DNA from: Yuukianura sp. NJ FZ-2021
Lineage: Eukaryota
Reading direction: 5' to 3'
Assembly (NCBI GenBank): GCA_046563655.1
Contig: CM102283.1
Coordinates: forward strand, 7,564,001-7,628,000
Length of the DNA: 64,000 nucleotides
Part shown: positions 6,349 to 42,800 of the stretch, piece after piece
Layout of the letters: every line of letters starts with the position of its first letter
Numbering within the stretch: the stretch's first letter is position 1
The notes under the pieces: model-generated
The model's database searches: none
The model's input: the letters and a program-made list of their open reading frames with translations, nothing else
Told to the model about the DNA's origin: nothing
Program-made: the position numbers and the translations under genes

Positions 6349-7104
6349 CAAGTTTAATTTTCAAAATGTAAGTTGAACTGGAGCAAACGATTTTCTTGAA
6401 GTCTTTTGCAGCTAAATTTTGCAAACCTTTTCAATACGGTTTCGGTTTCATATTATTTGACTCACCTTGTCAAATTATTGTGTCAAAACTTGATGAATTC
6501 AAGGAGGACATTTTCTGTTGATTGGTTCAGCCTTTTCGGTGTTCAGTTTTTTTTATTGCGTTACTTGTTTTTGAAGAGCCTGAAATACCCAGTCTTTTGA
6601 ATTGGTGTCAATGTCAAATCAACATGTCAAATCCATTGTGAATATTGATCTTTTGGATGTTTCCAAGTGACATCGAATTAACCTGTTAAATATTTCTGCT
6701 AACACTTCCAATTTTCTGGGCGTGGCATCCGACCAACTTCAAAAAATTTTCATTTTGTTAGAAACTTAGCATTCTACCATTAAATACCGCGTAATCTAGA
6801 CAGACTAGAAGAATTTCTAAAAATTTTAACAGTGTTTTTTGAACACTTACTTACTGCTGTGACCTTTGACCTTCACAAGTGTGTCGAAATTTCCTAAAAT
6901 AAAGTTCAACTTTGATACAATACACATGTCAATTTCGATTTAAATTGGTGATAAACATTTGTCAAAATACTTCAAATCTTTGACGCTAATCACTATTCCA
7001 AAATGTGATAACTATTTCAAAATTTTTAGCATTTTTAAAGTTTATAGTGCTATAGACTTTGCAGGGGAAACTTTATATCCGAATTTTCCAAAAATCGAAG
7101 CAAA

Positions 7105-8604
7105 ATGTCGTTTTCAGCGAAAGTACTGGCAGTACTTTTAGTTGCTACTGTTGCAGTTTGTTCAGGTCAAAATGAAATTGACTCTGTCCAACCTGGCTCA
7201 GCTACTGGTAACTTCTAACAAGTTTCATTAAAAAATTTTTTTCTTTCACAAAATTGTTTAAAAAATTTCGACTTGAAATTGGTCGTTTTAGATTCGGGAT
7301 TGAAAAATTATGTAATTTCTAAACTTTCAGAACTCCAAGAAAAGTTGGGGAAAATTTTGGCCCTGAAATTTATTGACTACTATTTCAAAAATGCTGAACT
7401 TAACACCGATGCTGCCAATCTTTTTCCAATTATTCCGCCATTTGAAGAAGACGTCGCAGCATTGGCCGACATGGCACTAACTATTCCAGAAGATTCAATT
7501 CTCTCAGGATTAATTTATGGCAACGTTTCGTTTTGGTAAAATAGAATTAAAAAAAATTTTTTTGAAAATTTTGAATTTTGTATTAACTTTTACTTTTGTA
7601 TGTCAGTCAAGTGCAAGCCAGTGGACTCACGACTATTTGGAATGACCTCGGCGGACAAGTCGATGAGCCTGGTCCTTCTGGAAGCATAAATTTCACATTG
7701 ACAATTGGCGATCTAAATTTTGACGGACTCGACGACATTTTGGTCCACGTTTTAGAAGGAGTAGACAAAATTACTGCCAATGGAAATTTCCATTTTGGGA
7801 TAAATGGACTTTATTTCAATGCGATTTTGAATCTGGCTAACATTGACATTTTTAGTAAAATTGACATAACTGGAGCTAGTTTGGACATGACTTTAGGTGG
7901 ATTGGAAATCTACTTTGAAAATGCAACTGAAAATGATATCCCAGTTCCAGAGGGGGATTGGCCCGAAATTAGTCAAAATGTTACTACCGCCGTTACGCTG
8001 CTCTGGAAGAATACGCTGGATCCAATTCTGGAATGGCTTCTGCCAGGGCCAATTGGAAACTTAATTTCGGTACTAATCAAAAGCACTCCAAATACATGTT
8101 AATTCTTATCATTGATTTCAAAAAACGAAAGTGTTTTTTCTTTAAATTTTCAGGAATGCAGATTGGTTGACTTTGTTTTTCGCAACTGTAAGCTATTTTT
8201 AAACTATCGGTTTAATTTTTTTTAGATTTGGAAAAAATTTCCTCACATTTTCAATGTGTAAAATTTTTGTTTATATTTTTTGATTTGTAGTTACGTGTAT
8301 TGGAGCACCAGCTGGAACCGACGGAATCCAGAAATTAATTTTGGACGAAATGGCGGATCTTGTACAGGTTTCGGATTTGGCTTCATGCCCAGCCTCAGCT
8401 CAAACGACTTCGAAAGCCGAGAAAGTTCAGAATTCAACAAATAACAACGCAACGGGTGCGAAAAAAGGTGATGGACCGCGCATGAGCAAACCAGCCTCTC
8501 ATAGAAGCGATTCCAAAAAATCTGGTGCCAACTTTCCAGTTCCACCAATGGCGCCAATTGCCTCTATTCCATTTTTCCTGCTTGCTTTCAATGGTGTCGA
8601 ATAA
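7105..8604 (+). CDS. JHBP/takeout-like array gene 3; 5 exons
   Basis: Signal peptide MSFSAKVLAVLLVATVAVCSG; exon 2 ends GNVSF(TG|); micro-exon ECRLVDFVFRN; C-terminus PIASIPFFLLAFNGVE*. Confidence 0.7.
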
Positions 8605-13024: not shown

Positions 13025-14488
13025 ATGGCCGCCGTTAAGTACTTCATTGCTGCATTTTGTTTGGTAACTACTGCCTCAGCGTCTCTTAAAAACTTAAAGC
13101 TTGTTCAAACTTTAGCCAATTTTGATCCGAAGAAAATTCCTAATGGTAAGAAATCAAAGACGAGAAGAAAATTTAAGATTAAATTTTATGTTGTTGTTTT
13201 TTTCCAATTTTATTTTTCTTTCAAAAACAGAAGTCATAGAAGAAGTTGCGGAATTCATTGGCTATTCACTTCTTCGCCATGTTCAAGACAGCATAGTTCC
13301 GGCTCTAAAATATTCAAATTTGACTTCCGACGGTTTCAAAACTTCGAACAAAATTGAAATTAACGTGGCAGATCCTCTGAGGGACAACGATATTCCGCTG
13401 AACAGTGCTCATTGGACAGAAGTTGCTGGTGGTCCTTCCAGCGGTCTCTTTGTTGGAGATATTCAATTCTGGTAACATTTTGAGAAAAAAAATCCGCCAA
13501 AATCAAATTTTTTTCGCGATTATTTGCAAAATGTCCAACTTGTCTTGTTTACAGCGATCCAATGGCAAGTGGATTTGCAAGCCTTGCAACAGACTTTGTT
13601 TTATCCGTGGATTCTTTCATTCCAATTACAGCTACAGCTAACCTTGACATATCTGCAACCCTGGACATTCATGGAAGGCACTCTATTGGAGCAGCAGTAC
13701 TTTTTGAACTCCTGCGCATTAAGAGTTCTGGTTACTTTATTGCCAGAATACGCAACACAGTTGTGAATGTCAATTTGAAAATTGACATTGATGAGTTATA
13801 CCGGTTCCGTGTGTACCAAACAGCGCTTGATATTGACCTAGAGCGAATTGACCTCCACGCAGACAGCACTGTTTTAAATGACCAAACTCTTGACTGGATT
13901 ACATTGAGTCAAGACATAACGGACATTTTCAAAGACCTTTGGCCAATTGTTAGAACACTCATCAACAAATTCTTGAGTGCTCCGCTGTCTAGAGTAATCA
14001 GCAAAGTCGTTGGGGTAAGGTTAAAATCAAAAGTTTTTCAAAAGTTCACAAAATTAAAAGCTCAATTTCCAACCTGGTCAAGGTTCAACTTGTTATTTTT
14101 CGTTTTTTAGAGATGCGGTATTGATGACATTTTGGAAATATTAACTGCCGGAGATGGCGAGGGTAAGTCATTCGAGATTCTTAAACAAACAGTTCGGTTT
14201 GAATTTTAAAAAATTAACTTTTTTCACTGTTTTTAAACAGTGCCGGCATGTTTTAAAGACAAACTGGCATCGCCGCCTAGTCTCCCAATCATTTCAAAGT
14301 GGTTGTCATCCATCGGAACCATGGCCGACTATGAAAGTTGTAACATCCAGTACGACCCACCACCCAAACCGGTCGTTACGACTACTCCTGCGCCAACAAC
14401 ACCGGAACCCTCTGCAGCTCCTGCGCAGTTCCCGCTTACAACCGTCTTTGTAACACTCATTGTGTCATTGGTTGCCATTTTTAACTAA
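13025..14488 (+). CDS. JHBP/takeout-like array gene 6; 5 exons; Thr/Pro stalk and GPI-like tail
   Basis: Signal peptide MAAVKYFIAAFCLVTTASA; VADPL; short exon RCGIDDILEILTAGDGE; tail TTTPAPTTPEPSAAPAQFPLTTVFVTLIVSLVAIFN*. Confidence 0.72.
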
Positions 14489-19497: not shown

Positions 19498-19629
19498 TTT
19501 ATTCAAATTACGAACACTTTTGATCAATAATTTAAAGAAAGTAGTAAAACAGAAAACATAAAAACAACAAAAAATGAGAAAGATTTTTAACGTAAATATA
19601 CTTCCAGAGTTAACTTTCACTTTCACCAA

Positions 19630-19867
19630 TACAGTAGAGTTTCCCACTTATTCCATTTGCCAAATACAAAACAAATTAGAATTGCACTACACTGGGGTTA
19701 GAAAGTTACATGAGTCTGAGGTTAAATTGCCATTGGCAATTCCCCCATTTGCCATTGCACGCTTCATTTTGCCAGGTCACCGCCAATGTAACGGGTGCGA
19801 GTTTTGTATTTGTCAATTGAATTTGTTTTGGATTTTGCACATGGAATAAGTGGGAAACTCTACTGTA
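19630..19867. mobile_element. Tc1/mariner-pogo-type MITE just upstream of the SDR start
   Basis: TA|CAGTAGAGTTTCCCACTTATTCCAT ... ATGGAATAAGTGGGAAACTCTACTG|TA: 25-bp perfect TIR that continues imperfectly to ~50 bp, with TA duplication. Confidence 0.85.
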
Positions 19868-20141
19868 CATAGTTAGCTATTGGACTTTCGAAAACTGGGT
19901 TACCTTACAACAGGAACAGAGTGGAAGAGTCGTTAATCGCGTACGGGCACCCAAAAATTAATTAAATAAATAATTATGAAATTAATATTATTATATACAT
20001 ATACACATTTCTATACAAAGTATGTGTTTACCATTTGTTTGTTTATCAGAATTAATTCTAATTGGTTGCAATGAAATTTGAAATGAAAAGTTAATTAGCT
20101 ACAATAAACAACAAGAAACAAGAATATGTGAAATTAATATC

Positions 20142-20441
20142 AAAAGTTCCCAACTAGCTAGAAGGAAGATGAGCGTACCAAAATATCCCTTAAAACTTTG
20201 GACCTTTTTGACATTTTTTACCAAAATTACACTTCAGAGGTATAGGGGTCGGAGGTCATCGAAGATGAAAAAATTTGATTATATTTTCTTTGAAAAATTA
20301 TATTAAAAGTTCCCAACTAGCTAGAAATGAGCTGACTGTACCAAAATGACCCTTGACCCTTTGGACCTTTTTGACATTTTTTACAAAAATTACTTTTCAG
20401 AGGTATAGGGGTCAGAGGTTATCCAAGTTGAAAAAATTTGA
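20142..20441. repeat. Two imperfect direct copies of a ~163-bp unit
   Basis: AAAAGTTCCCAACTAGCTAGAA...CTTTGGACCTTTTTGACATTTTTT...CAGAGGTATAGGGGTC occurs at 20142 and at 20305. Confidence 0.85.
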
Positions 20442-20854
20442 ATTTTTGCTAAGGCAGTAGACTACATCCGAGATCGTGTGGTACGGTACATGGCCTGAAC
20501 GGAGAGGAAAAGCGAGACCAATTTAACTGACAACCAGGTCAGTTTCTTCGTCGCGGAACTGCTAAGGTATGCATTACAAACAAATTGCAATAATTCATAA
20601 TTCTATCATAAGCACAAGCAGGAACACATTTGAAAAAGTATATACTACTATACTTTCAGCTCTCCTTTTTTCAGAGAATTCCAAATTGACAACAAAGGCA
20701 CGAGGCAGGATTCGATCCGAATTAAACCGACACCAATACGCCTGGATTTGGCATTTTTTTCTGCTGTTCTTAGAAGCAGATCATTGGCGGTGGTGTCGAC
20801 AAACTAAATCCGCCTGCAGCTCAAACACATCATAATTCAAATACTGACAGGTTA

Positions 20855-21380
20855 TGTAATGATGTGTTACTGTTATGCTTAGAACACTTTCACTGTATTT
20901 ACTTAAGATGTTACTAAGAGGGAGTCTAGAAGGAGACTGAATAATACTGGACCCTTGAAGATAAGGTGGGTCAAGATGTCCACTACATTTTCAATTCCTC
21001 CTCTTTTTAGTTGTCCCTTTTTACTTTTCTTATGTTATGTAACTGACCCCTAGTTGCTAAGTGCCTTTTTCTGTCTTAGGGTAGGTTAGTATAGCGTAAA
21101 GTTGACTTTCCTTCCCGGCCTTCCTTCGCTGGCCCTTAAAAAGCGTTGATCTGTCACTGAACACTTCAGTTGTGGTTCGGACGCTTAAGTTGGACCACTA
21201 CTAACACTTTGCAGCCAACTGAATCCAGGCTCGCGTGTGCCCCCCTTAAACTTAAGGTAACCCATGTTTGTTATCCTTCCCACTAAGTTAAGTTACTTGA
21301 ATAAAGACTTTCTCTCTTAACGTATTTCAACGAAGTAGTTGTTGACCATTTATTACGTGAAAGGGCCACGTAACATTACA
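20855..21380 (+). mobile_element. Candidate solo LTR
   Basis: 526 bp bounded by TGTAATG...CATTACA (TG..CA, 7-bp inverted ends), with AATAAA at ~21300. No matching target-site duplication seen. Confidence 0.4.
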
Positions 21381-22588
21381 ATTCCCGTTCGATTATTTTA
21401 AACTTTCAACACAGTCCACTCGTTCATCTCAAACCAAAACGGAAAACAAGGAAGATTACGATGACGTATTTGATTCGGATGTGGGTAGTCCGTCTTACAT
21501 TCCAATGACAGAAACGTATAACTCAGACGTCGAAGACACCAGCTATCCGTGTGATGAAGAAGCAACCATAACAGTAGAAGGTCAAGTCAATGGTCATACG
21601 GAAACAGAAGCCCAGAAAAGCGGGAGCGACCTTGACCTTCCGTTGACGGCCTCGAACTCAATCGTTGCCGTAAGTGGCAATTTTAGTGCTTTGCAACGTA
21701 ATACACCGTCCAACATTACTGTGTACGCAGAAGGCTACCCTGAATGCATCTATCAGGAAATTTTAGGTAAATGTTACATATGTTAGGTCCTATTCAATCT
21801 TCTAGTAAAGTGATACTGTAATTTATTTATATGTTCTATGGTTCGCATTTGCAAGAGGGCTGGGAACAAGGGTCTTGCCAATGAGTTACCAGTCACCATT
21901 GACAGTTTTACCAACTACTTTGGTGTCAAGGGTTTCGAAAAAAACCGGCCCAAAATAAGTAGGCTGTAACTTTACAAAAGTTACATTATTGCGACATCAA
22001 TTTTTAATCATCCTCAATTTACACAAAGAATACCCATTTCTGTTGCAAAGAACATCTTTCCTAACGCAAAGCAGAGGTTAGTCTTACGTTAGTAAAATCC
22101 CAATTTTTAACCTGTAGTTATACATAATTTCTTTGTAGCAAACCAGCGAACTTCTAGAGACCTAGTAAACCAAAGGCTCCAATAAAAGCAATCCTTCCTG
22201 CTGCCGTTGGATCTACCCTCTACGGTTTGACGGAATTAGCGCACCTGGTAAATGGAGATTCAAGCAAAGTGTGCCTTGTTACGGGGAAAAGCTGAATGTT
22301 AAAACTGGACATGAAGTACAAAAGAAAGATGACGCTGTCTTTAGGCAAGAAGATGATGAGCTGTACTTTAGCAGTGAACACGCTAAGTTAGATTAAGTGA
22401 TATGTGAATTAATAGCTTACGATTGTCAAGAATCCGTAGGCATTTTCCTGTGATTGTGCTGACAGATCTCTACATGATGCACCATCTTCATCACCCACTC
22501 GAGAAGCGAGAGGATTTGCGTCAAAACTCTTCCAAGTGGTAGGGAAGCCAATTCTTTGTGGCCTGGGAAAAAGATTTAAAAAACCGTA

Positions 22589-22975
22589 AAACATTTAAGC
22601 GTTTTTTCAATTAACTTTTTACTCAACACAGAACGTAGTTATAAAGTAGCGATAGCTACTTTAACACCTAACTGTCTGTCTGTCCATCGGTCCATAAAGC
22701 ATTTAAGCGTTATTTGAATTAACTTTTTATTAAACAACACAGAACGTAGTTATAAAGTAGCGGAAGCTAATTTACGGTCTTGTCTGTCTATCTATCCATA
22801 AAGCATTTAAGCGGTTTTTCAGTAAACTTTATACTAATCAGCACAAAACACAGTCATTAAGTAGCGGAAGCTGCTTAATTGTCTTGTTTGTCCGTCTGTC
22901 CATCTGTCATTCAAACATGTATTTCAACGAAAATGAGGTTGCTGTTAAGTAGCGGAAGCTACTTTACCATGTCCT
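22589..22975. repeat. Three to four degenerate ~105-bp tandem units upstream of the polymerase pseudogene
   Basis: Recurring CATTTAAGCG, ACACAGAACGTAGTTATAAAGTAGCG(G)AAGCT and (CTGT)n/CCAT tracts. Confidence 0.8.
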
Positions 22976-23260
22976 ACTGTCGTTTGCTCATTTTGTATGA
23001 AAAGCGTTTTACCCAGGAAAACGTGGCGATTAAGTCGCGAGAGCTATTTACCAAATTCCGGAAACGCTTTCATCATACGTCTCAATGGGCAAAAGTGACT
23101 CGACTTTTTGGACGATTTTAGCATTTTAAAGTATTGAACTATGTATTAAGGTTAGAACCAAATGTTATTTGTCTTTTAATTATTTCTAAGGATGTCGTTA
23201 TTCTGGATATTTATCGGGAATTGAAGTGTCCGCCGTGTAATCAATCGCTTACCTGTCGAG

Positions 23261-26140
23261 ATGAGGCAACAATATTTCTATGACATTCATCCAGACTTTT
23301 TCTCAATTCAATCACAAGATGGATGTCTACGTCCATCAAATTTAAAGCCCATCGAAGTAGTGTTAAACGTTACATCTCTAAAGGTCGTCAAGGAATACAA
23401 GGCAAAATTTGACGAATTCACATGTGAAGATGGCGTTGACGAGCGAGATTTTTTTAAGCGCGTTTACTCGTCATCTGTTAGCCGGATCAAAGAAGATCGG
23501 AAAGAGTGGAAAAACATAAAAATTTTCTTCTCCATGATGTGCCGCTTCACGAAGACTCAAATGGACGGATCTGTCGAAACAAACCGTGGCTGTTTCATAT
23601 CATATCGACATCTCGTATACACAGAAGAAAGCCTTCCAAAGGTCTGGACGCTTATGGCCCACTAAATGTCCAACCAAATTGAGCACTTAACCTAACCCAC
23701 CGCTGCAGGATTGACAAGTTGGTCAGAACATATGCTCCCCACGCTTCAAAAGTGAGCACACAAGGAATCGAATTTCCGATGACGACGCAGCAATTGTCAT
23801 TATTTGAAAAGATCAATCCTCGTATCTCACTAACAGTTCTGGGCTATGACAAGCACGGCCCTGCAGCCCCGCCACGTACTCAGCAAAGTAGTCGTCAGAA
23901 ATCAAGCACTAACAACGGAGAAGAATTGGACTTGTTCAAGCACATGCAAGACAACATATCTATTCTCTACAATTCAAAGGAGACCAAACCTATTCATGTC
24001 GATCTAATGTGCCTCGCGCAAGGTAACAATTCACATTTCATCCTTATTCGAAATGTCGAATCGCTCATGTCGTCCCCCGATCACAAAGGCTCTAGACACA
24101 TTTGTCGCAATTGTCTTTCAAACTTTACACTTGCAAAAACGCTAAAAGAACATATTCCATACTGTGCTGCATAGGGTCTTCAAAAAGTCAAATAGCCAGA
24201 GGGGGATAAGTGCAAGTTGAAATTTGACAAATGGGCTCACACACAACCAATTCCATTTCGCTTTTACGCTGGTTTTGAAGCGTTTCTTAACAAATTTGAT
24301 TCTACTTGTGAACACGCAGTCTGTCGCCAACGGCACAAAGCACAAATGATGGGATCAAAAGAAAAAGAAGTCAAAGAAAATCCCCGTCGCAAGAATATTC
24401 ACAAACCTTGTGGATATGCATGGGTCTGCGTTGACTTTAACGGTAAGGGTCGTTATGGAGAATGCTATCACACAACAGACGACGATGAAGACGGGCTGCT
24501 CACTTTGTTGAAACCATTCTCAGATATTCCAAGACTCTTCAAAAGGAAATTGACGAATATGAGAAGATTGCTCCGAGAATGCTGGATCAAAACATAACCC
24601 GAGAGCAGCATGAAGCTTCACAACGCGAAACAAAATGCTGTTTTTGTGAAAAAGCATTTTTTCATGGTGAAACAAGAGTGCGCCACCATACACACCTTCC
24701 ACCTTTCAATTACATCGGTATGGCACATCAATCCTGCAATCTTGAAGCTCAGATTAAAAAGGAATTTCCAGTGTTCCTGCACAACTTCTCCTCCTACGAC
24801 GTCCACTTCCTGGTACAATCAATGGGGAAGCTGACAGAGGACAAAATCATCAAGAATGTTGAAGTTATTCCAAACAGCAGCGAGAAGTACTTGTGCAAGA
24901 CCGTTACTCCTGAGTATTCGGGATATGCGGAGGAAGAAGAAGACGACGAGGACTAGGTCGGGAATGCGAGAAGAAGAGAAAAGTACAAACTGCGATTTAC
25001 AGACAGTCTCGGCTTCACCCTCAAATCCCTAGACGGTCTGGTTAAGGTAATGCGTCAAGATCCAAATGCTACCTTTCCAGTCACCCGCCAAGAATTCCAG
25101 CAGGAAATCGATAATGGTGCCAACCTCCATCTCCTCTTCCAGAAAGGCGCCTACCCATATTCACTCATGAAATCCTGTGAAGACTTTGAGATGGACAGCC
25201 TACCACCAAAAGAGGCGTTCTTCAATGACATGACCGAAACGCCAATCCAGGACGCAGTCTACAATCACGCAAAGGACGTGTGTGTGTGAAAGCTTCAAAA
25301 TCAAAAACATGGGCGAGTGGTATGACCTTTACGTGCGTCTTGACGTTTCACTTCTGGCTGACGTGAAGGAGGGAGTTAGAAAGGTCATGATGGACAGCTA
25401 CGGATTGGAACTTCCAATCCGTCATTACCATTCTCTTCCAATGATGGCCATTGATTGTGCTCTAAAGAAGTCTAGAATTGTCCTAGAGTTAATCAGCGAC
25501 CCTACGATGCATTGTTTTTTTAGAGAATTCAATCAGGGGTAAGAAATTATATTATTAAAAATAATTGAAATTGTTGAAAACTAACGACTTCTTTTTAAGT
25601 TAGGCGGCTTCGTGTGCGTGGGATCTCGACGTTCTGCAACTGCAAACAATCCTTACATGGCTGACGAGTATAATCCGAAGAAACCCATCTATTATATCAT
25701 TTACATTGACGCGAATAATTTATACGTTTTGCCAAGGACTTCTGGAAGCTGCTGAACAACTCCGCTTTCGGAAAGACAATCGAGAAAGTCCGAAATCGAC
25801 AGCATGTGCGCATTGTCACAACGGTTGAGAAGGCGCTTTACTATAACAAGAAGCCAACGGTTCAAAACGTGATTCCCATAAACGAGACGACTTGTGTCTT
25901 TATCATGAAAAAACTTCAAGTGACACTAGCCAAACCAATCTTCACAGGAGTTACGGTACTTGAGCTGGCCAAGAGCGTCATGACAGGCTGGGCATGCAGG
26001 CAAAGTATGGAGACAAGTGTCGTCTGATATATACCGATACTGGTAAGTACAAACTACTTTTAGTTTTTGTCAAAATTCATTACAAAAACCAGAATTTTTT
26101 TTTCCTTGCAGATTTATCACATTGAAACCGAGGATGTGTA
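23261..26140 (+). pseudogene. Decayed Polinton/Maverick-type protein-primed family B DNA polymerase with endonuclease-VII-like insert
   Basis: Ordered motifs across frameshifts and stops: FEKINPRISLTVLGY; HICRNCL; CCFCEKAF...RHHTHL...GMAHQSCNL; PVFLHNFSSYDVHF; RFTDSL; QKGAYPY; LPPKEAFF; IKNMGEWYDLYVRLDVSLLADV; YIDANNLY; KLLNNSAFGKT; KPIFTGVTVLELAK; YTDTD. Confidence 0.88.
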
Positions 26141-26731
26141 GTCGAGGATGTGTGTTCGAAATTTCTATACAAAAATTTCATTACTTGTTTTTTCGACTTT
26201 TCTGTTTTTGATATTTTCTGTCGACATTTTTGTTTTTGATATTTTTTATATTCTCTCATTTTGTCATTTCCCCTCCCTTGTAGTACTAGTGCGCACAGGC
26301 AGGCTCGAACCCCTACGAAGGGGCAATAACAGAGTGATTTTTCTTTTTCAAAAATAAAAAAGTTGAAAAGTGTTCAAAAATATCACGAATTTTTTTTTTT
26401 GCCTGGGGTGTTGGAAATCGCCAAGAAAAAATCATTTTGTCATTGAGTTTTTTCCCCTCAAATACTGAGGCTGACTAACCCCTACGAAGGGGCAATTCCA
26501 TATATAGTGATGTCGAGTTCTACACCAACTACTGAAAATTCGATTTTTTTTCGACATTTCAAAGTTGTGCGTGACCAATAGAGGGTCAAAAACTTCAAAA
26601 ATTCAAATACTTAGCGAATTAAACGTTAAAATACCATGACATAACGTGACCTTAAATGATATTTGATCAAAAGAAGCTAAGGTCAAAGTTTAGAAATCGA
26701 AACCCAGTTTGAGGCTTCCAGATAGTCTCTT

Positions 26732-28463
26732 TCAAGATGTACATGATCCGCCATTTTGTGCAGCAGTGACCGAATTTAACGCATCGACTGCTCCCATTCC
26801 ATATTCGTTGTTAGGGTATTGTAATGTTCCAAATCGAGAATTTGCAACTTCACAAATATTACTCGGACGATTTAAGCCAGTTTGGCGACATCCGTTGAGT
26901 AAGTAGGTTTTCAATTGATTAATGTTCCGACTACTGCTGGGGCACGCTGAGATTATAAGAGCAGCAACTCCTACAAGGAACCAATCAAATCCATTCTACT
27001 GTAAAATTAGCTAGATAAGTTAACTTCAAATGTTAATATATAAAGGGCTACGGTATACTGATGCGGTTCAATTTTACCTGCGACATGGGGTGTAGCCATA
27101 CTGGTACCGGAAATTGTATTGGTGGCAACATCACTCGTGTACCATGCACTGGTTATGGCAACGCCTGGAGCAGCTACATTCGGTTTGTATAGAACCGGCG
27201 GGAAAGTTAAATCAGGGGCGGACGATAGTGCTCGACTGCTGAATGCTGCTAGAGTATTGGTATTGTCAAAGGCTCCCACGGATACAACTGTTTCGTATCG
27301 CCCAGGAGACCCACTTGATCCGCATGTTGGACCAGTATTTCCATTGGCAAAGATTGGCAAAATATTCATCGCTTGCCAACAAATCACAACGGATTCGTAG
27401 AACGTATCCAGTCCAGGGCCACCCCAACTAACATAACAAAAATTACAGAATTTAATTAATTAAGTAGTGAAATTAAGCAAAAACTGGAACCTAACCTGTT
27501 ACTACATAGGTGTGGCTTCATTTTACATCCGTTGGTTTCCGTGTCAGGGCAAACGATCCACTGACCACATGAAACCAAGTCCGATTCTGCGCATGCGTTC
27601 GACTGACAACCCTTGCATGTTAACCACTTTGCCCCAGGGGCAACTCCGATTCCATTCGAACCCACAATTGTGCCTATAATTTCAAAAACGATTTGAAACA
27701 CTAAATTTGAAAATGGCGCATAAAATTTTATAGTGTACCCATCGTATGTGTGCCATGCCCAACTTGGTCATTTGGTTCCTTAGTGTTGTTGGCTGGGTCC
27801 CACCAAAGTCCAAGATAATTAGCCTTCAAATCCTTATGCGTCCATCTTACACCAGAGTCAATCGTAGCAACGATGACCCCTGACCCAGTGATTCCTTTGT
27901 TCCAAACGGCTGATGCCCGGACGGAGTCGATTCCTGAAAAATTTGTTGTATTTTTGAAAATTTTCTGCAAATTTTGAATTTTAAGATCAAGAAAAGAATG
28001 GTTTACCCCATGAAGCTGCAATTTTAGTTGTATTTGAAGCTGCAATTGGATCCAAAGTGAAAACACGTTCTTCGGTGATGGCAGTAACAGCATCATGATG
28101 CTGCAAAATTGAAACTAGCGCCGCGTTGCATTGCGGTACATAAACCGAATTCGAAATCCAGAATGACTTGAAATTTCGAATTCCTAGGATATGCAAAAGA
28201 TCATGAATTGGTTTTTGTGTTTCCTTTGCATGTTGCTTCAGTTTACGAATTAATGCAACAGTAGATTCAGATGTAGCTTTTGTGACGTCACGGTCACGTA
28301 CCGCTTTCTGGCAAATGTCCATAGCTCCACCGATTGATACAAATACGTTTGCAACGCCATTGTCAGCCAGTTTTTGTTTCAAAGTTTCTCGAAGTTGAAC
28401 AATTCCTAGCGAAGTTTGAAGTATACCCGAAATTATAACGATTTTGAACAAAACGTTCCACAT
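26732..28463 (-). CDS. Secreted S8 subtilase A, bacillopeptidase-F-like; 5 exons
   Basis: Signal peptide plus propeptide (SFWISNSVYV). Catalytic triad motifs IDSGVRWTH, GHGTHTMGT, GTSMATPHVAG; also GIGVAPGAKWLTCKGC and C-terminal YPNNEYGMG. Confidence 0.9.
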
Positions 28464-28649
28464 TTTGAAAATAATTTGGACTTGTTACTGCTTCGGTTGC
28501 TTTTCAAAAACTGGGACAAAAAAATTCAAAAATAGGATTTGAACAAAGGCGATTTTATTTGAACTGGGAGGAAATTTTGGATTCTTTTTTTAAATCTTTT
28601 GTTTTCGGTTGAACAAAGCACCAAAATTTGGTTCTCTGAATTGTGTATT

Positions 28650-30720
28650 TTAACTTGTAGCCTTCACAAGTGAGTTTTTGGCGTTTAGAATCCCTTGTCC
28701 AAATTCATTGTTTGGAAATCTATAACTAAACCCTTGAACTTCACAATTTATGTCATAAGGCCTGTGGACGTTTTGCGTTGCTCCTTGAAGTAAAGCGGAT
28801 TTGACCTGGTCAAAGGTCATTTTTCCCTGAGTTTCAAACATCAGAGCAACAACTCCTGTTACGTGAGGAGCAGCCATGCTAATAAAAAAAAACGAAAATT
28901 TTTACAAAAAATAAATTATGAAAAACGACACTTTTAGTCATAAAAGTCACCTCGTTCCAGAAATTTTGCGGTAGTCGTTGTCTCCAGTATGCCAAGCACT
29001 GAGAACGCTTTCACCTAGAAATCCAATTACAAAAAATTAAGCTTTTCAGGCACTCTTCATCTAACGATATTTACTATATTGTATTACGTTATAAAGTTAA
29101 CTTTAACTAACCAGGAGCGGAGATGTCTGGTTTAATTTTTCCACCGATGATACCCAGCAAACCTCCAGTAGGTCCTCTACTGCTGAATCTCGAAAGTTCA
29201 TCCTTGGCATTGAATGATCCAACGGAGATGACACTGTCGTAGTCACCGGGCGAAGTGGCAGTACGACACCTTGGTCCACTATTTCCAACGGAAAATATTG
29301 GAATGATTCCAGCAGAGCGCCATGCGGCAATCATTTTGACATAAGAGGGGTCATTCCCCACCGAATTTCCCCAACTGGAATGAAACAAGGGAAGATTAAA
29401 TGTGACATGAAGATGCTTGATTACATTTAGATTAGTAGTAGAGTAGTGTCTTTTTAACCATCCTTAACTGACTTAATTACCTTAATAAATTCTTACCTGT
29501 TGTTAATTATCATTGGAGCTTTGGAGCAATCAGCGTCGCTACCATCAGGTTTCGTTGGACACAAAAAGAACTGACCACAACTGAGGAGGTCAGACTGTGC
29601 ACAAGCCCTAGTTTGGCACCCTTGAAGTTTCAATTTAATACTATTTTATACAAATTACGATAATTCAGTAAAAACAAATCCTACCATAAAGCCTAGTTTT
29701 GCTTGAAAATTTGAGCTGATTTTAATTTTTCTATAATTATTATAATTGTAACTTATTAAAACTCGTCTTACCTTTGCATGACATCCATTTAGCATGCGGC
29801 GCAACGCCAATATTTTTTCCAACAATTGTTCCTGTAAGTACGAAATTTTTAGACTGTGATTATATTCTGGACATGTATTTCATAATCTCGACAACTTTTT
29901 ACACATATTTATAAAATTACGAAATTTAGTAGAATCAAAGTAGAATTAATTATGACGTACCCATCGTATGGGTTCCATGACCAATGCCGTCATTTGGAAA
30001 CGGCGTCTCTTCAACTGGATCATACCAGCCATGGTCTCCACCCACATAACTATCGGCCAATTCAGCATGCGTATGTCTAAAAATGTTACAATTTTTCAAA
30101 ATCAAAAAAGTTGCTAAGGTTTTAAGTTTTTTTAGTTCTAATAACCTAACTCCGGAATCAATTGAGCCAACAATGACAGGTTTGGAGCTTTTCTTAAGTG
30201 ATTTTTGTAGTCTCCTTGCTCCTGGAACGTCAATTTTCTCCATGCCCCAAGTATACTCGTCATCATCAAAAGTTGCCACCTTTGGTTCCAGTGGTCCAAA
30301 TCCAGCAAAAGATTCTTCCTGGATGAATCCAATGACTGATCCAAGTGTTTGCAGCAGTACAACCAGTGGTCTGGTGGCTCCCTTGCAATAGATCTGATTC
30401 GTGATCCAGTACTGCTTGATAGTCAGGTCAGTTCCAGTGGTAGCTACGAATTTATTCAGGACGTCCATCACGATCTGCTGCGTTCTGTTGGCAAGGCCTT
30501 TGAGGTCATTCGTCAACGACGTAATATGAAGTCCACGGTCGCCCAACGTTTGGTCCAAGACGTCATTCAAAATTTGTTCTGGTCCTTCGGCCAAAGTGAT
30601 GAAAATATTAGCACTGCCCTCTGTGGACAAAATGGAACCGAGGTTGCCTAGCAACGGAACACTTTGGACTCTAGATACAACACCGAAGGACAAAAACAGA
30701 ATTACCACAATCTTGGACAT
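28650..30720 (-). CDS. Secreted S8 subtilase B, bacillopeptidase-F-like; ~7 exons
   Basis: MSKIVVILFLSFGVVSRVQS; IDSGVR|HTH; GHGTHTM; SWGNS; KPDISAPG; SGT|SMAAPHVTG; FPNNEFGQG. Confidence 0.9.
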
Positions 30721-31575
30721 TCTGGATACCAGATTTTCAAGTAATGCTAAACAACATAAAATGTAATACAAAGTTACACTTTTTATAATGCAAAACAATT
30801 TTAGTTATACAAAAAGAAATTAAATTAAGGTTCTGATTCATTAACCTCAATTATTGGAGAAGCAGCAATTTTATGCCATTTTATACCCAGTTTCCAGTTA
30901 TGCTAATTCTGAAAACAACAAAAACATACGCAACTTCACTCAGAATGCTGAAGTCACGCATGCGGACATCGCAGATGATACATCGAGGGACAACGCAGAT
31001 ACATACACTTTGTGCGTCACTAAAAACTTTTTGAATTTTTAGAGTTAACTTTGTTTTTGTGTTGTTTTTTTTTAATAGAATTCGACACGTCTCGAATGAT
31101 TTGAAAAGACAACAAAAGACCTTTGACGTCCAAATTCTGAATTTGTTGACACCAAAATTCAAAAATTGGACGTCACTGGTCTTGTCGTTTTGAAGAGTCT
31201 TAAAAGGTTTTTATTGTTAATGTTAATTTAAATTTAAATTAGAAAGTGTGAAATAGTGAAACGTAGTTTTGATTTTGATCGAATGTTTTTGCTCCGTCAC
31301 TGTTTTGCTTTAAATGGGAAGTCCATATCATCTTTTGACCACCGAAGTTTGAATTATACTCGAAATTGCAACAATTTATCAACAGCATTCAACATATTTT
31401 GGATTTATTGTGATATTGTTACTCGTCACTTTTCAAAAACTGAAACAAGAAAATCGAAAATGGCATTTGAAAATAGGTGATATTATTTGACCTAGGGAGA
31501 AAAATTATTCTTTTTTAAATTTTTTGTTTTTGGTAGAACAAAGCACAAATTTTTGTGTTTTCTGCATTGTGTATT

Positions 31576-34500
31576 TTAACTTATAGCCTTCATAAGTGTG
31601 TTTTTGGCGTTTAGAATTCCTTGTCCAAATTCATTATTTGGAAATCTAAATTTAAAAAGTTGAGCTTCACAAATTCCGCCAGAAGGCCTTCTGCCGTCTT
31701 GTGTTGCTCCTTGGAGTAAAGCGGATTTGACTTGGTCAAAGGTCATGTTGCCTCGAGTTTCAAACATTAAAGCAACAACTCCTGTCACGTGAGGGGCAGC
31801 CATACTAATAAGAAGAAAAAAGGTGTTTTTTGTCAAAAAGTGTTGTTAAGTAAAAATTACATTCAAAAAATGTTCTACCTGGTTCCCGAAATTTTCCGAT
31901 AGTCGTTGTCTCCGGTGTGCCAAGCACTGAGAACATTTTCTCCTGAAAATTATATAAAAAATGTTAAAAACTTTACTTTTTTTATCGATCTTTTTTTTAA
32001 ATTAAAAATTTAGTTAAAAATTTAAAAGTTTAACCTGGAGCAGACATATCTGGCTTAGTTCTTCCGCCGATACCCAGCAAACCTCCAGCAGGACCTCTAC
32101 TACTGAATTTCGAAAGTTCATTTTGGGCATTAGAAGATCCAACGGAGATGACATTGTCGTAGTCACCCGGCGAAGTGGCAGTTCCACACCCTGGGCCAGT
32201 ATTTCCAATGGAAAATATTGGAATGATTCCAGCAGAACGCCATGCCGCAACCATTTTAACATAGGTGGGATCATTCCCCTTCTCGTTTCCCCAACTAAAA
32301 TAAAATTTTGAAAAAGATTTCAAAATTTTGAAATAATGTCACGGTCAAAGACATTCGTCATTTTCTTTTTGTCCTAAAAGTAAATTCCTATTGTTGGACT
32401 TTGTAACGCCTTGATGAAAGTAAACTTGTGACTATTTTTTTAGCCACAAACGTCATTCACCTCGTGAATTTCTTTAAGTTTTTTCAAGTGATTGATCAAA
32501 GGACAAGATTCCTTTTTTTTGCTTTCTTTACATTGCTGTCCTTCATTTCAATACAATTGCAAACTCATCACCTTTATTCCTATAAATAAAAAGGTGGTTA
32601 GGGAGAATTTTCACACTGTAATTCTGAAAACAAAATTGCGACTTTTCTGCATCAGGTTTGCAGTATTTCTGGTTTTGAATTAAAAAAAGATCAAATGAAG
32701 TCGAGTTGTGGTTTCAAAATAATTTTCTTAATTTTTTTGACATTGCCAATTAGCTACTGTCAACTTGAGTATGTTGCAACTTCGACACCTCGGATTGTTA
32801 GTACACTTTGCATGAGCGCTAGATATCGACCGGGAGTACCATACAAATTTTTCGATTGCTACAATTACGCTCCTGTAAGATACTTTCAAAGCACAAACGT
32901 TGATTTTAACGTTGAAGTTGAAATTAATTTGAACTAACTTTTTTGAAACCGAATTTTACAGGGGAAACCCGTTTTCGTAAAATGTCAAAAACGATTTTTC
33001 GGCGGCGTCCTCGACAATTTATCAACAATAAGCTACTCCTGTCCTCGTGTTTGGCTACTCCCTCCGGTAACTACCTTTCCAAAAACTTATTTCGCATTAA
33101 TATATAATATTCTATAAATATATTATATTAATAATATATCAAACTCGAGTATATTGGTCTGTCACTAATGTCGTAATGCTTTGCCTTTGCAGTATATTCT
33201 ATGTGTCGCAAACGGATTGAGAGCAGCAGGACTCGACCCGGTTAGCACTGTTGCAAAAGTTAACGTAAGTGCCTCAAATGTCAGTCAGTTAATTAAGTTT
33301 AAAGCTAACTACATAATCAGCGGTATAATTAAGTTAGGTTGATGGACATTGATGAATTGAAAACTTTTAAATATTTGCAGATGTGTCAATCGAAAGTAGT
33401 CGGATTGGGGTAACTTTGCTTGTGTTCGACTCGAATTTTGGAAGTTGAAATTGAAATGAAAAAATCAACCATCTAACCATTTATAACTGAATTAAGTAGT
33501 TAAGACAAGTTTTAATTATAACCTACCTGTTGTTAATTATCATTGGAGCTTTGGAGCAGTCAGGGTCACTACCATCAGGTTTCGTTGGACACAAGAGGAA
33601 CTGACCACAACTGAGGACGTCCGACTGCGCACAAACTTCAGTTTGACACCCTGGAATTACAATTTAATGTAAAATTACAATAATTTAGTACAAAAAAATT
33701 CTAGCACAAGCTTAAAAACTTAGTCTTGTTTGAACCAACATTTGAAATTATTTTAATTACTACTAACAGTAACTTATTAAAACTCGTCTTACCTTTGCAT
33801 GTCAACCACTTTGCATTCGGCGCAATGCCAATATTTTTTCCCACAATGGTTCCTGTAAGCACAAAACAAGTTTTTAGAAGGTTCGTATATTCTGGACAAG
33901 AATTTCATAACATCGACAACTTTTGACAAATTTTTACAAAATTACGAAATTTACGTCAACGTAAATTACGTAATTAAGGGTTAATTACATTAATAACTTA
34001 CCCATCGTGTGACTTCCATGACCAATGTCGTCATTTGGAAACGGCGTCTCTTCAACCGGATCATACCAACCATGCTCTCCACCAACGTAACTATCGGCCA
34101 ATTCAGTATGCGTGTGTCTAGAAAAAGTTTTCAAAATTTTCAAAATCATAATTTTTTTTGATTTCTTACCTTATTTTTGATTTTTTACCTGGCTCCAGAA
34201 TCAATTGAGCCAATGATGACCGGTCCGTGGTTACTCCTAAGCGATTCTTGCAGTTTCCATGCTCCTGGAACGTCAATTTTCTCCATGCCCCAAGTATACT
34301 CTTCCTCAGTATAAGTTGCCACCTTTGGTTCCATTGGTCCAAATCCAGCATACAATTCTTCCTGGATGAATCCAATGATGGATCCAAGTGCTTGCAGCAG
34401 TACGACCAGTACTCTGGTGGCTCCTTTGACATAGATCTGATTGGTGATCCAGTACTGCTTGATAGTCAAGTTAGTTCCAGTAGTGGCCATAAAGTTATTC

Positions 34501-34793
34501 AGGACGTCCATGACGACCTGCTGAGTTCTGTTGGCATGTTCCTTGAGGTCATTCGTCATTGACGTAATTTGACGTCCACGGTCACCAAAAGTTTGGCCTA
34601 AGACGTTATTCAAAATTTGTTCTGGTCCATCAGCCAAAGTAATGAAAATATTGGCACTGCCCTCTGTAGACAAAATGGAATCGAGGTTGCCTAGCAACGG
34701 AATGCTCGGAAGACCTTGTGCAATATTCGGAATATTTTGGGCTCTGGATGCAACAGCAAGGAACAAGAACAGAATAACCACAAACTTGGACAT
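31576..34793 (-). CDS. Secreted S8 subtilase C, paralog of B; ~7 exons, with one intron enlarged to ~1.2 kb (about 32297-33527)
   Basis: MSKFVVILFLFLAVASRAQ; IDSGAR; GHGSHTM; KPDMSAPG; SMAAPHVTG; exon structure collinear with B. Confidence 0.85.
32695..33413 (+). CDS. Nested 129-aa small secreted six-cysteine protein; 4 exons (32695-32874, 32962-33066, 33193-33264, 33381-33413)
   Basis: Signal peptide MKSSCGFKIIFLIFLTLPISYC. Three phase-0 GT-AG introns join an uninterrupted ORF ending MCQSKVVGLG*. It lies antisense within the subtilase C intron. Confidence 0.75.
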
Positions 34794-35235
34794 TCTGACC
34801 TTCAAGTAATGCTAAACAGCAAGTCAAGACTAGGATTTTTTGGGAAAGTTCCACACTTTTTATAAAGCAAAATTTTTTATAGTTTTGAGAAAAGGAATTA
34901 AATTAAGGTTCTGATTCATTAACCTCAATTGGACAACCAGCAATTCCGTGCGGTTTTATATCCAGTTTCCAGTTATGCTAATTTTTAGCAACAAAAAACA
35001 TAAACTTCATTTAAACTGGTAAAATCACGCATGCGCACAAATGATTCATCGTTGGACAAACCTTGTGCCTCACTAAAAACTGTGTGAATTGTTTAAATTA
35101 CTTTGTTTTCATGTTGCTTTTCACAAGAATTTGACAAATCTGAATTATTATCTGAAAAGATGACGAACCCTGTGACGCCCAACCTTGAAATTTTCGTGAC
35201 AAAAATGCTCAAAATATTGATTTTGTTAACATTAC

Positions 35236-36219
35236 AGGCATTCGGGAAGTACCAATATTTTTTCCAACAATTGTTCCTGCAAGTTTTTAGACGGCGATTA
35301 TATTCAGGAAGTGTATAATAAGCCTCGACAAGTTGTCGGTCGAAAACTTTTTACGAATATTTACAAAATTACGAAATTTACGTCAAGGTAAATTACGTAA
35401 TTAAAAGTGGATTTAATTATGACCTACCCATCGTATGGGTTCCATGACCAATGCCGTCATTTGGAAGCGGCGTCTCTTCAACTGGATCATACCAGCCATA
35501 CTCTCCGCCAACATAACTATCGGCCAATTCAGCATGTGTATGTCTAAAAATGTCAAAATTTTCCAAAATCAAAAAATTGAAAACTTTGGAAGTTTTTTTT
35601 CTTTTAGGTCTAACCTAACTCCAGAATCAATTGAGGCAACGATGACAGGTCCGTGGTTACCCCTAAGCGATTTTTGTAGTTCCCATGCTCCTGGAGCTTC
35701 AATTTTCTCCATGCCCCAAGTATACTCGTCCTCAGAATAACTTGCCACTTCTGGATCTATTGGTCCAAATCCAGCAAACGATTCTTCCTGGATGGATCCA
35801 ATGACTGATCCAAGTGCTTGCAGCAGTACAATCAGTGGACTGGTGGCTCCCTTGACATAGATCTGATTGGTGATCCAGTACTGCTTGATAGTCAGGTCAG
35901 TTCCAGTGGTGGCCACGAACTCATTCAGGACGTCCATGACAACCTGCTGAGTTCTATTGGCAAGGTCTTTGAGGTCATTCGTCATTGACGTAATTTGACT
36001 CCCACGGTCGCCAAGCGTTTGGTCCAAGACATTATTCAAAATTTGTTCTGGTCCTTCGGCCAAAGTGATGAAAATGTTGGCACTGCCCTCTGTGGACAAA
36101 ATGGATTCGAGGTTGCCTAGCAACGGAATGTTTGAAAGACCTTGGGCCAAATCAGGAATAATTTGGGCTCTGGTTACAACAGTAAAGGACAAAAACAGAA
36201 TTACCACAAACTTGGACAT
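35236..36219 (-). pseudogene. 3'-truncated S8 subtilase D
   Basis: Exons 1-2 are near-identical to B/C (IDSGVR, GHGTHTM). Exon 3 diverges after GTIVGKNIG at ~35250 and runs into the upstream region of gene C. No catalytic-Ser exon. Confidence 0.8.
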
Positions 36220-39800: not shown

Positions 39801-42800
39801 AGATGTTTTTGCGGCCAGATTACAAGAATTTCGATTTGAAATTTTTGAAACTATTTCAAAAATGGATCAGTTTTTGGAAAAAATTGCAATTAAAGCGTCA
39901 CTAGCTTCAGCAGCTTCTGAAGTGCCCAGGGCAAGGTCATCAGTTGAACAAGCTCAGCAACTTTCGGGCTTAACAATTCAAACTGGTGGATCCACTAACG
40001 CGGGTAATTTTTTTTAAATTGAGAGTTTTTGAGCCAAGTTTAAAAAGCAAGTCTAAAAATTAGCTCATATTTTCAGATACTGCAGATGAAATTGTGGTGG
40101 GTGCAGTTGCATCGGCGCAGTTGCCATCTCCAGCGCCATCTACATTGTCAATGTACTCAACCGTCAGAGGAAGCAGGACCGTATCGCGCCAAGGTAGTAC
40201 AGCAACTACAACCAGTTCATACCACACTGCTGCCACGTCAAGCAGTACTGCCAGCAGTGGGAATCGCTCCAGTTCCTCCACTGTGTCATTTCCAACTACT
40301 GGCCCCACCCTACAAAATGGACTAGCAAGAAATTTCACTCAAAGCTTCCCATCTCTTCATGAACCGAGATCCAATCGTAGGAGCAGAACTGTGTGGCAGA
40401 AATTTTCAAATTTGATGAATCCGGGCAAAAGTCGTTAGGATAAATTCAAGGGTCAAAGGTCATTCGTAACGTAATCAAAGGCCCAAGCTTGTAGCATTTT
40501 TCTTTACAAAATTATAACTTTGTTGAAAACAAAAACTATAACGAAAATTGATTTTTTAGATAATAGAAAAATTAGAAAAATAGAATTTTGAAATTAATTT
40601 TTTCCAAAGTAATTTTTTAGGTACTGGGCATATGAAAAACGGAAAACAGAAATGTTGAAAAAACACAATCTTATGGTTTGTTTAATAACTTGAAATTTTG
40701 TTTGCATTGTAAATAAAACAAAATGCTGTAAACTTATCTGCTTCCTTGTTTTTTTTTACAACTTTTAAGAACAGACATGATTGGCGCTTCGAAAATATTT
40801 TTCGGTGTCACGTATAATCATTGTATATTGTATAAACTTTTATGACTGAATGTTATTGTATTTTTTACTAATCGTTGGTAATACCATTGTTCTTTTTGAA
40901 ACTGGACACTTCAAGCTAAAAGCGGTAGCTTGCGCGTACAAGTTGTCGCTGTCCTTGCATTAGCGTTAAGAGAAAACTCTCTTACGCTAAAGCCAGCTCA
41001 TACGCGAATTAAAAAACACAAATACTCTAATATGTCTTCTGGAAAATTTCTGTCCAATTCGGTTTTAAGGAACAATTTGGTTCCTACTAGCAGTTTTTAA
41101 TGAAATACGAAAAATATTCATTGACACTTTGAGTGGATCTCACGACACTGTGTGGTACATCTCATTATACTTAAGAATTGGCATTAGAAAGGATGGAAGG
41201 CGTCTTTCGCGAAAGTAAGGGTAGCAGAAATCATTATTGTTTGGAACAATGTTCTAACTTTTGTTCAAAATGTTTTGAGGCGTCTATCAAGAAGGCCACG
41301 TTGATGTCGACATTGGATTTCCGAACATGGATGATATTCGTATTCGCGGGAGTTTTCCACGTATTAAGCCACGAACTGAGCGACCTGAATTGGATGGAAA
41401 AGAACTCAAAACCCTCGAGTCGAAACTTTGGAGCTGGGCAGATGAATACTTTGACCTGTCAAAACGGCCCCAATACTTCCAAAATCTCGCCGCAGCTACT
41501 ATCTCACTAGTACCTTCCATCGAGCCTTGGACATCATTGGACAGTGACGTGATGGACCTCGAAATGAAATTTGTGTTTTGGTGTAGCCTGCTTGACGACT
41601 ATATTGAGGAATCTCCACCTACTGCTGCGAGGCTGATTCGAGAGCAAAACGAATATTTTGAGCGACTGTGGTGTCAAGATGTCCACCCTTCCACCCTTGC
41701 ATATCCAACAGAATTCTGCGACCTCTTTGCTCCACTTTGTGATTCCTTGGTTTATATTCGTGAGCGCATGCGATTGTATCAAGGATTTGAGCATGGATTT
41801 CCTACGTTCATTTATTATCGTACGAGGTACGACAGGGCCACTGAACTCATTTGCTCCATTCGGAATCAACAGTTTCTCAACCTAGACATGTTCAGATACT
41901 GGAGAAATATTGTATTTTATGTTGAGGGGATTACATTAACATTTGCTATGTTACATGACATTTTGCCAGGAAAGGTAATCTTGGAATCACCTTATTTGCT
42001 GAGACTATTTGAGGTTGCAAATTCGTATGGATTTTTAGTCAATGACATTTTTGGAATCAAGAAGGATTTTGAAAAAAAAGAACAAAATATTATATTGTTC
42101 AAGCTAAAGGGGAAGCTGGACCAAACGGATCTGCAGAAGGAGCTGAACATATGTATGGAACAAATTGTTCAAAAACTAAAGGAAGACGTTGTTGAGTACC
42201 TCGACCTTCGAGGTAGACTTGTTAATTTGTATCCATCAAACTCAAAATTGCTAAAGTTTTTAGACCTGTTGGACAACTTCATGGACGGGCAATTACATTT
42301 GTATGTGCAAAGTCCTAGATATATACTGACGCCTACGGATTCAATCAGTTTGAAACGTTCGGTTTGAAACGCTTCATCTAAGATTCCGATTTGGTGATTA
42401 GAAACTCTATGCTTCTTAAGCAGACTTTCAAAAACGCTTTTGTCATCACGTTCAAGAGGTCAACACTATTCAAACCAAAAAAGGATTTCATATTTTCAGT
42501 TCTTAGATTTCAAAATTTTCATTTCAAAAAAGTTTCGGATGTTATTAGAATGCCCAAATGCAAATAGTACGGTTGAAAAGTTGGGAAACGTAAAATTTTA
42601 GTTACCAAAAATAAAAGTTCATGTAAACTGAAATCTTTAATAAAAGCTCTAAATGTTTATGTCGCTAGGTTTTATCTTTTACTGTTGACAGATTTTTTTT
42701 AAAGTTAAATTCCTCGATGCAAACTAACGTTAAAGTTAGACGCCTTTTGTCTTGTGGAGTGATTCATAGCACTTTATTTTTCATGAAAGGCAAATGCAAT

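Follow-up and report, generated by a model that had tools for sequence, protein, structure and literature searches.

Gene calling in surveys of Polintons, Mavericks and adintoviruses usually relies on uninterrupted open reading frames (ORFs), with interruptions taken as decay. In its accessible sections, a study of vertebrate elements (PMC8097293) describes the ORFs of intact Mavericks as intronless, 'in agreement with' Kapitonov and Jurka 2006, and counts the 'introns' proposed by Genewise as insertions; the accessible part of a nematode study (10.1101/2022.07.12.499685) likewise gives intronless Maverick core genes, with introns present only in cargo genes. Introners are reported within Maverick-Polinton-like viral elements of dinoflagellates in the available text of PMC12166617, and introns in Polinton or adintovirus genes did not come up in a term search of the available portions of PMC10748475 and PMC8502044. 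None of the literature that we searched describes a Polinton polymerase with introns, and an early mention may exist. Exons may already have been annotated in some invertebrate Polinton genes in Repbase-era descriptions. Here we analyse a 64,000-nucleotide stretch of contig CM102283.1 (positions 7,564,001 to 7,628,000 of the forward strand; hereafter the window, with coordinates counted from its first letter), which holds at 23384-26152 (+) a broken copy of a Maverick/Polinton-type protein-primed DNA polymerase (pPolB). An original prediction, made from the letters of the window, had placed two short spliceosomal introns inside this polymerase, and its premise that pPolB genes are usually described as uninterrupted agrees with the accessible parts of the vertebrate and nematode studies.

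Our analysis makes it quite likely that the locus is a dead pPolB copy of a multi-copy, intron-bearing Maverick/Polinton (adintovirus-like) family in the genome of an arthropod, probably a springtail, and that this family would need host splicing to make its polymerase. The proposed descent of the copy from an intron-bearing lineage of such elements is supported by paralogous copies, by the clade in which the polymerase falls and by the colinearity of the sequences flanking each segment, which we describe in the following sections.

Intron anatomy and colinearity with uninterrupted homologs

A profile was built from 32 relatives of at least 1000 aa (full-length protein-primed polymerases), and against it the polymerase pieces of the window (Table 1) form a colinear chain over profile positions 50-1030, with the reading frame changing repeatedly along the way. 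The pattern of pieces obtained by tblastn with full-length homologs agrees with this chain. Within it, the Exo III motif (YDLYVRLDVSLLADV), IRGG, DANNLY, KLLNNSAFGK and YTDT/D (a slash marks an intron position throughout) are readable. Pfam assigned no polymerase family to any of the nine window fragments; since the intact relatives L002 and L006, loci of the metagenome scan described below, were equally blank, this result is uninformative.

The first segment begins with GTAAG and carries CTAAC at 25581-25585, 19 nt before the intron end, and TTAG at 25600-25603. Its excision restores the reading ...ENSIR-G/G-FVCVGSRRSATANNPYM...YIDANNLY (also written ...ENSIR-G/G-FVCVGSRR...YIDANNLY), and on the profile the upstream piece ends at position 733, where the downstream piece begins. 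Read without excision, the same segment contributes two stops and about 22 residues found in none of the 32 homologs. In the second segment, the 3' end consists of a T-run followed by CCTTGCAG, with TTGCAG at 26106-26111; the last profile position matched by the exon before it is 1030, the T of YTDT, and excision yields ...LIYTDT/D. The lengths, boundaries, restored motifs and phase (1 in both, by the reading after excision) that the original prediction had given for the two introns were all reproduced. Features of U2-type boundaries are present in both segments, with GTAAGA...CTAAC...TTTTTAAGTTAG in intron 1, GTAAGT...TTTTTTTTTCCTTGCAG in intron 2 and pyrimidine-rich 3' ends in each.

When the 32 full-length homologs are aligned, all 32 are free of extra residues inside I-R-G-G or D-T-D-S. 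The closest relative, L006, is uninterrupted at both sites, where it reads ...STMYCFIENSIRGGYCAPGALRAAIANNPYMQDEYNE... and ...RLMYMDTDSLIYHVETQDLY..., with ...DTDSLIYHVETQDLY at the site of intron 2, and the window exons align to it residue for residue. Flanks that fail to join colinearly had been named in advance as an observation that would count against introns; by the profile, by the 32-homolog alignment and by L006, the flanks of both segments join colinearly.

Two further possibilities were considered and rejected. A third GTAAG, at 24443, was tried as an intron donor, but at this point, within overlapping pieces, the profile runs on without a gap. For a self-splicing group I or group II intron, Rfam gave no match at E<=1 in 23000-26600, and 65-69 nt is far too short for such an intron. 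A third, phase-0 intron was probably present right behind DANNLY, with three of its letters kept in the window (Table 1): one paralogous continuation behind 25728 is very AT-rich and, joined to the GTT of the window, begins like a GTTAGT donor. Another paralogous contig continues in a coding-like manner at 25724.

Paralogous copies in DNA contigs

Paralogs of the window copy were collected as DNA contigs of at least 80% likeness placed on 23200-26400, using four public runs from two samples and two studies; runs X1, X2 and X4 represent one sample and X3 the second. At this threshold the runs supplied 255, 232, 33 and 110 contigs; single sites were covered by 7-9 contigs, and every likeness class from below 90% to at least 99% was represented. 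These contig numbers and likeness classes point to a multi-copy repeat family, which by summed contig depth already reaches 23200. Across the four runs no contig skips either segment, and none of the six joints listed removes 25539-25603 or 26043-26111. Related copies lacking the segments were the other observation that had been named as counter-evidence, and the paralogs of the same family keep both.

Intron 1 is contained in record 8 of run X1 (284 nt), which spans 25444-25713 and differs from the window by 27 other letters and 16 gap letters, a divergence that marks it as a diverged paralog. For intron 2, X1 and X2 each supply one spanning contig; within the intron the length differs from that of the window by single letters at three places, and the register is kept on both sides. 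Directly behind 26111 the paralogs hold a short extra stretch, the length of which brings both exons in register. They also differ from the window at both of its stops, at 25279, at 25515, beside 25982 and beside 26111; these stops and breaks are thus specific to the window copy, and since the paralogs keep the introns while several of the breaks are missing from them, the introns predate the decay of the window copy. At 25515 the length differs in some paralogous contigs, which makes the T-run frameshift just upstream of intron 1 (Table 1) specific to the window copy as well.

Likeness to host introns

Host introns were identified in the adjoining subtilase genes with a profile of 12 homologous subtilases and frame-keeping GT..AG pairs, retaining exact fits. 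This procedure yielded 15 introns of 65, 68, 69, 71, 72, 73, 74, 92, 97, 107, 122, 129, 142, 149 and 151 nt, almost half of which (7/15) measure 65-74 nt. Their donors include GTAAGT, GTAAGA and GTTAGT (GTTAG-type in 4/15), most of them are rich in T just ahead of the closing AG, and their mean GC content is 0.236 (range 0.12-0.32) versus 0.457 in the exon pieces. In the polymerase, GC is 0.185 in intron 1 and 0.261 in intron 2 versus 0.42-0.49 in the coding pieces, where not one of 2131 stretches of 65 nt has a GC of 0.29 or less; GTAAG occurs three times in 23384-26152, and two of these occurrences begin the intron segments. Both polymerase segments match host introns in size and composition, which bears out the proposal that introns of 65 and 69 nt are host-sized.

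Outside relatives and the timing of intron gain

A word-index protein search recovered one relative, P0001 (1172 aa, PF03175 + PF02945), among 86 candidates, and an exhaustive protein search recovered 2696 relatives at E<=0.001 and 189 at E<=1e-10, the best at only 44% identity. From a metagenome scan, 80 loci were compared at the intron sites. Around site 1 (profile 715-750), 79 of the 80 form one open piece and the remaining locus has a single stop. Around site 2 (profile 1015-1045), 58 loci span the site in one piece, six reach it in a broken state and the rest fall short; among the six, five are broken by stops or frameshifts and one, L044, by an intron at another position. All of the more distant relatives, at 35-60% amino-acid identity, are without the segments.

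In the phylogeny (FastTree LG+gamma, 448 columns, 80/81 rows kept), the window and L006 form a pair (support 0.99) within a clade that also holds L005 and L001-L003 (support 1.0), and each of these five loci has one open polymerase frame. L003 and L005 carry an rve integrase, an A32-type ATPase and an adenovirus-type protease, and L002 carries the ATPase; membership in this clade identifies the window polymerase as of Maverick/adintovirus type. In viral contigs we found no close relative of L006, only three distant ones at 30-33% identity. As a separate observation, L005 encodes at 6918-7667 (+) an inhibitor-of-apoptosis protein (BIR + RING) beside its integrase, ATPase and protease genes. Because the relatives in the clade are open at both sites and in-register paralogs keep the segments, the pattern shows lineage-specific gain rather than post-decay insertion, and the introns were gained in the window's own lineage after its split from the nearest known relatives.

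A second set of interruptions was found elsewhere among these polymerases. In seven metagenomic loci (L029, L030, L041, L043, L044, L060 and L063) the gene is interrupted at profile position ~1073, immediately ahead of the G-K-F-K-D-E region, by a shared GT-AG segment that is AT-rich and in phase 0. Interruptions that fit GT-AG exactly also occur at ~1111 in L029 and L044 and, 13 residues before motif C, at 1016/1018 in L044; for the gaps at ~1111 in L030, L041 and L043 there is no exact GT-AG solution. Together with L031, which ends before 1073, these seven loci form a separate clade (support 0.775), and by this distribution intron gain in the polymerase family has happened at least twice.

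Alternative explanations

Four other accounts of the two segments were weighed. One holds that there are no introns at all and that GT and AG are paired here by chance in a frame-shifted pseudogene, for which it may be said that GT and AG dinucleotides are common and that this gene changes frame often anyway. Against such chance pairing stand the stops and the ~22 residues, absent from all 32 homologs, that reading through produces, the fall in GC to 0.19-0.26 in the two segments only, with no coding stretch at or below 0.29, and the presence of just three GTAAG in 2.8 kb, two of them at the segment starts; we regard it as hardly credible. A second account takes the segments for AT-rich insertions, merely intron-like, into an already dead pseudogene. 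It draws on the heavy decay of the window copy, on the lack of the segments in all outside relatives and on the further breaks that adjoin both of them (the T-run frameshift at the first, the out-of-register exon after the second). Such late insertion is nevertheless highly improbable, as in-register paralogous contigs still contain the segments and none skips them, as the exact GT..AG ends allow a removal that restores colinearity to the residue, and as the size and GC of the segments match host introns, so that two accidental insertions of this kind are very unlikely.

The remaining accounts accept the introns and differ over their origin. Intron-generating transposons (introner-like elements) could have created real introns by inserting in the family's ancestor, and the accessible text on dinoflagellate Maverick-Polinton-like viral elements (PMC12166617) offers a precedent. 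We consider this most unlikely: the two segments are unlike each other, a search of the 64-kb window and of the 80 loci gave no other copy of either, low-complexity matches of up to 20 nt aside, and at 65-69 nt they have the host's minimum intron size and no terminal repeats. It is also very unlikely that the locus is a decayed duplicate of a single-copy host gene domesticated from a pPolB, an origin that the original prediction had offered as an alternative. Genes with a long residence in a host genome typically gain introns, and the window copy has neither terminal inverted repeats nor any integrase, capsid, ATPase or protease gene next to it, all of which would suit domestication. The many divergent contigs at single sites and the wide range of their likeness, however, characterise a repeat family, the contig counts of the four runs fit a mobile family better than a single gene, and the nearest relatives lie on contigs with a full Maverick gene set, which leaves the domestication alternative unsupported.

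Several observations weigh against our own account of a dead copy from an intron-bearing mobile family, and they are gathered here. Neither window position carries an intron in any of the 80 metagenome loci, all five nearest outside relatives are free of both introns, and the intron-bearing state is known only from the family in this genome. The paralog evidence amounts to one or two contigs per run for each intron; record 22 of X3, from the second sample, is near-identical to this locus and hence not independent; and among the contigs, which mostly measure less than 1.4 kb, there is no intact full-length family member and none that links both introns. In the window itself, the exon end LENSIR stands one frame off the preceding PTMHCF, so that intron 1 needs an extra upstream frameshift in this copy. 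Behind intron 2 the window reads only D-L-S-H-stop, with just 41 nt of homology that is out of register; given this out-of-register IYHIETEDV, the acceptor side of intron 2 draws on the paralogous contigs and L006 and not on the window alone. Splicing in working copies, finally, is deduced from anatomy and conservation.

A proposed spliced polymerase gene and its implications

Under the preferred reading of a dead copy from an intron-bearing Maverick/Polinton family, the family's polymerase gene would be split by short U2-type GT-AG introns, one at I-R-G/G-F before motif A and one in the second Asp codon of motif C, with a third probably right behind motif A. Working copies would undergo nuclear transcription, and the host spliceosome would then remove the short introns before the polymerase is made, so that the IRGG, motif A and motif C regions would become translatable as one protein only after splicing. 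The window copy would have inherited introns gained after the split from the nearest known relatives and would then have decayed through stops, frameshifts, a deletion of ~150 codons and 3' truncation. We infer that intact, active copies of the family exist. The window locus itself is only a fossil, and its value is that of an independent witness to introns being old within the family.

We are evenly divided over a broader proposition, in which a Maverick/adintovirus lineage of springtail-like arthropods gained several catalytic-core introns (at IRG/GF, behind motif A and inside the DTD of motif C) while the nearest relatives stayed intronless, and thereby tied its replication to nuclear RNA polymerase II (Pol II) transcription and host splicing. 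If true, the lineage would have moved from a virus-like lifestyle to a long-term one in the germline, and intron presence or absence would become a simple marker separating endogenous from exogenous forms. Combined with the second, metagenomic intron-bearing clade, it would mean recurrent intron gain in Polinton core genes that surveys based on uninterrupted ORFs have missed. Such surveys would under-count intact elements and mis-date decay if whole lineages carry real core-gene introns. Intron-bearing core genes would require nuclear transcription and host splicing and would suggest long residence in one host lineage; they would also serve as a testable marker for the existence of any particle-borne form of these elements.

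Decay of the window copy

The window copy is unable to make a polymerase under any reading, and the locus qualifies as a dead copy. Besides the two in-frame stops, at least four frameshifts are present (near 24500, near 25280, in the T-run 25515-25521 and near 25990), and profile positions 773-922 and anything past ~1040 are missing. Paralogous contigs continue with unlike sequence on both sides of 25724-25728, confirming the internal deletion. Where the window has its final 41 nt, L006 reads ...SLIYHVETQDLY; at ~26152 the homology stops in a 3' truncation and a different repeat begins. In each run, 3-5 contigs have loose ends 'before 26153', and the summed depth goes up over 26089-26302.

Table 1. 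Coordinates of the introns, polymerase pieces and lesions of the window copy
Feature	Coordinates	Strand	Remark
Intron 1, 65 nt, phase 1, GTAAG...CTAAC...TTAG	25539-25603	+	Splits the I-R-G/G-F motif upstream of motif A
Intron 2, 69 nt, phase 1, GTAAGT...TTGCAG	26043-26111	+	Interrupts the second Asp codon of motif C (YTDT/D)
Probable remnant (GTT) of third, phase-0 intron, directly behind motif A (DANNLY)	25726-25728	+	
Polymerase piece	23384-23653	+	Profile 50-136
Polymerase piece	23716-24168	+	Profile 221-342
Polymerase piece	24196-24525	+	Profile 352-445
Polymerase piece	24498-24908	+	Profile 433-557
Polymerase piece	24987-25280	+	Profile 559-650
Polymerase piece	25282-25527	+	Profile 650-729
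Polymerase piece	25603-25728	+	Profile 733-772
Polymerase piece	25728-25988	+	Profile 923-1009
Polymerase piece	25994-26041	+	Profile 1015-1030
In-frame stop codon	24172-24174	+	Most paralogous contigs have a different letter at 24173
In-frame stop codon	24954-24956	+	Every contig listed at 24955 has a different letter
Frameshift in T-run, ...PTMHCF (frame 1) to LENSIR (frame 2), just 5' of intron 1	25515-25521	+	Frames and L006 alignment
Internal deletion junction, profile 772 to 923, ~150 codons gone between motifs A and B	25726-25728	+	Profile
Final 41 nt homologous to the polymerase (...IYHIETEDV), not in register with the exon that precedes intron 2	26112-26152	+	
Start of a different, more abundant repeat	26153-26302	not assigned	Contig loose ends and depth

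The other genes of a Maverick-type element were sought throughout the window. No rve integrase was found among its 97 ORFs of at least 90 aa, no capsid, packaging ATPase or adenovirus-type protease gene was found in these ORFs or by tblastn, and tblastn of 280 ORFs from the relatives' contigs gave no window match outside 23000-26300. Within 19500-27500 no long inverted pair (terminal inverted repeats) flanks the polymerase fragment, as expected of a copy truncated at ~26152. Of the element features that the original prediction had linked to such a polymerase, the integrase, ATPase and protease are borne out in the relatives L003 and L005, and the window has neither these genes nor flanking terminal inverted repeats.

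Some repeats were noted around the copy. The repeat that begins at 26153 (26153-26500) contains a 28-nt tandem pair at 26188-26243 and, at 26308 and 26477, an exact 20-nt direct repeat holding a small palindrome. Upstream, about four tandem copies of a ~104-nt unit occupy 22584-22966, ~400 nt before the first polymerase homology.

Neighbouring genes and the host

The window is animal DNA, with genes for haemolymph juvenile-hormone-binding proteins (JHBP), a rhodopsin-type G-protein-coupled receptor, a short-chain dehydrogenase and a tandem array of S8 subtilases. Two open frames with JHBP domains lie at 4794-5333 and 13484-14107 (+), and these domains support an arthropod host; the best animal match of the subtilases is a protein of the springtail Orchesella cincta, and the host is probably an arthropod of the springtail group. 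The subtilase array, at 26747-36114 (-), comprises at least four bacillopeptidase F-like genes with several short introns each. Among homologs, the best matches to the array are subtilases of oomycetes (Pythium) and bacteria and the one springtail protein, a distribution that suggests a horizontally acquired family which later gained host introns. At 41279-42364 (+), a 362-aa open frame matches the microbial-type terpene synthase C-terminal domain (PF19086, E 1.4e-5), possibly another horizontal acquisition into the animal genome.

Comparison with known systems

Among described systems, the Maverick/Polinton pPolB (adintovirus-like, eupolintovirus) belongs to the same family as the window polymerase, in which Exo III, I-R-G-G and motifs A, B and C are recognisable. 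Whereas the core genes of vertebrate and nematode Mavericks are described as intronless, the window polymerase carries short introns of spliceosomal type, two of them at catalytic or conserved motifs; it also differs in being a lone dead fragment that lacks other element genes and terminal inverted repeats. The second intron-bearing clade of metagenomic loci comes close in kind, as its Polinton-type pPolB genes are likewise interrupted by GT-AG, AT-rich segments (~96-131 nt) at fixed position. That clade is distant from the window, however, its intron positions (~1073, ~1111 and, in L044, 1016/1018) differ from those of the window and are all phase 0, and the window copy ends before ~1073 and ~1111.

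The adenovirus DNA polymerase is a pPolB expressed from spliced E2B transcripts, and it resembles the family described here in that a virus encodes a protein-primed polymerase and depends on the host spliceosome for the mRNA. In adenovirus, splicing joins upstream leader exons to a continuous coding body, whereas the introns of the window cut the catalytic core. Among mobile elements, Penelope-like retroelements that contain introns were reportedly described by Arkhipova and colleagues in 2003. They are invertebrate mobile elements that keep spliceosomal introns in their own genes, as here, but they encode a reverse transcriptase, whereas the window copy derives from a DNA element with a pPolB.

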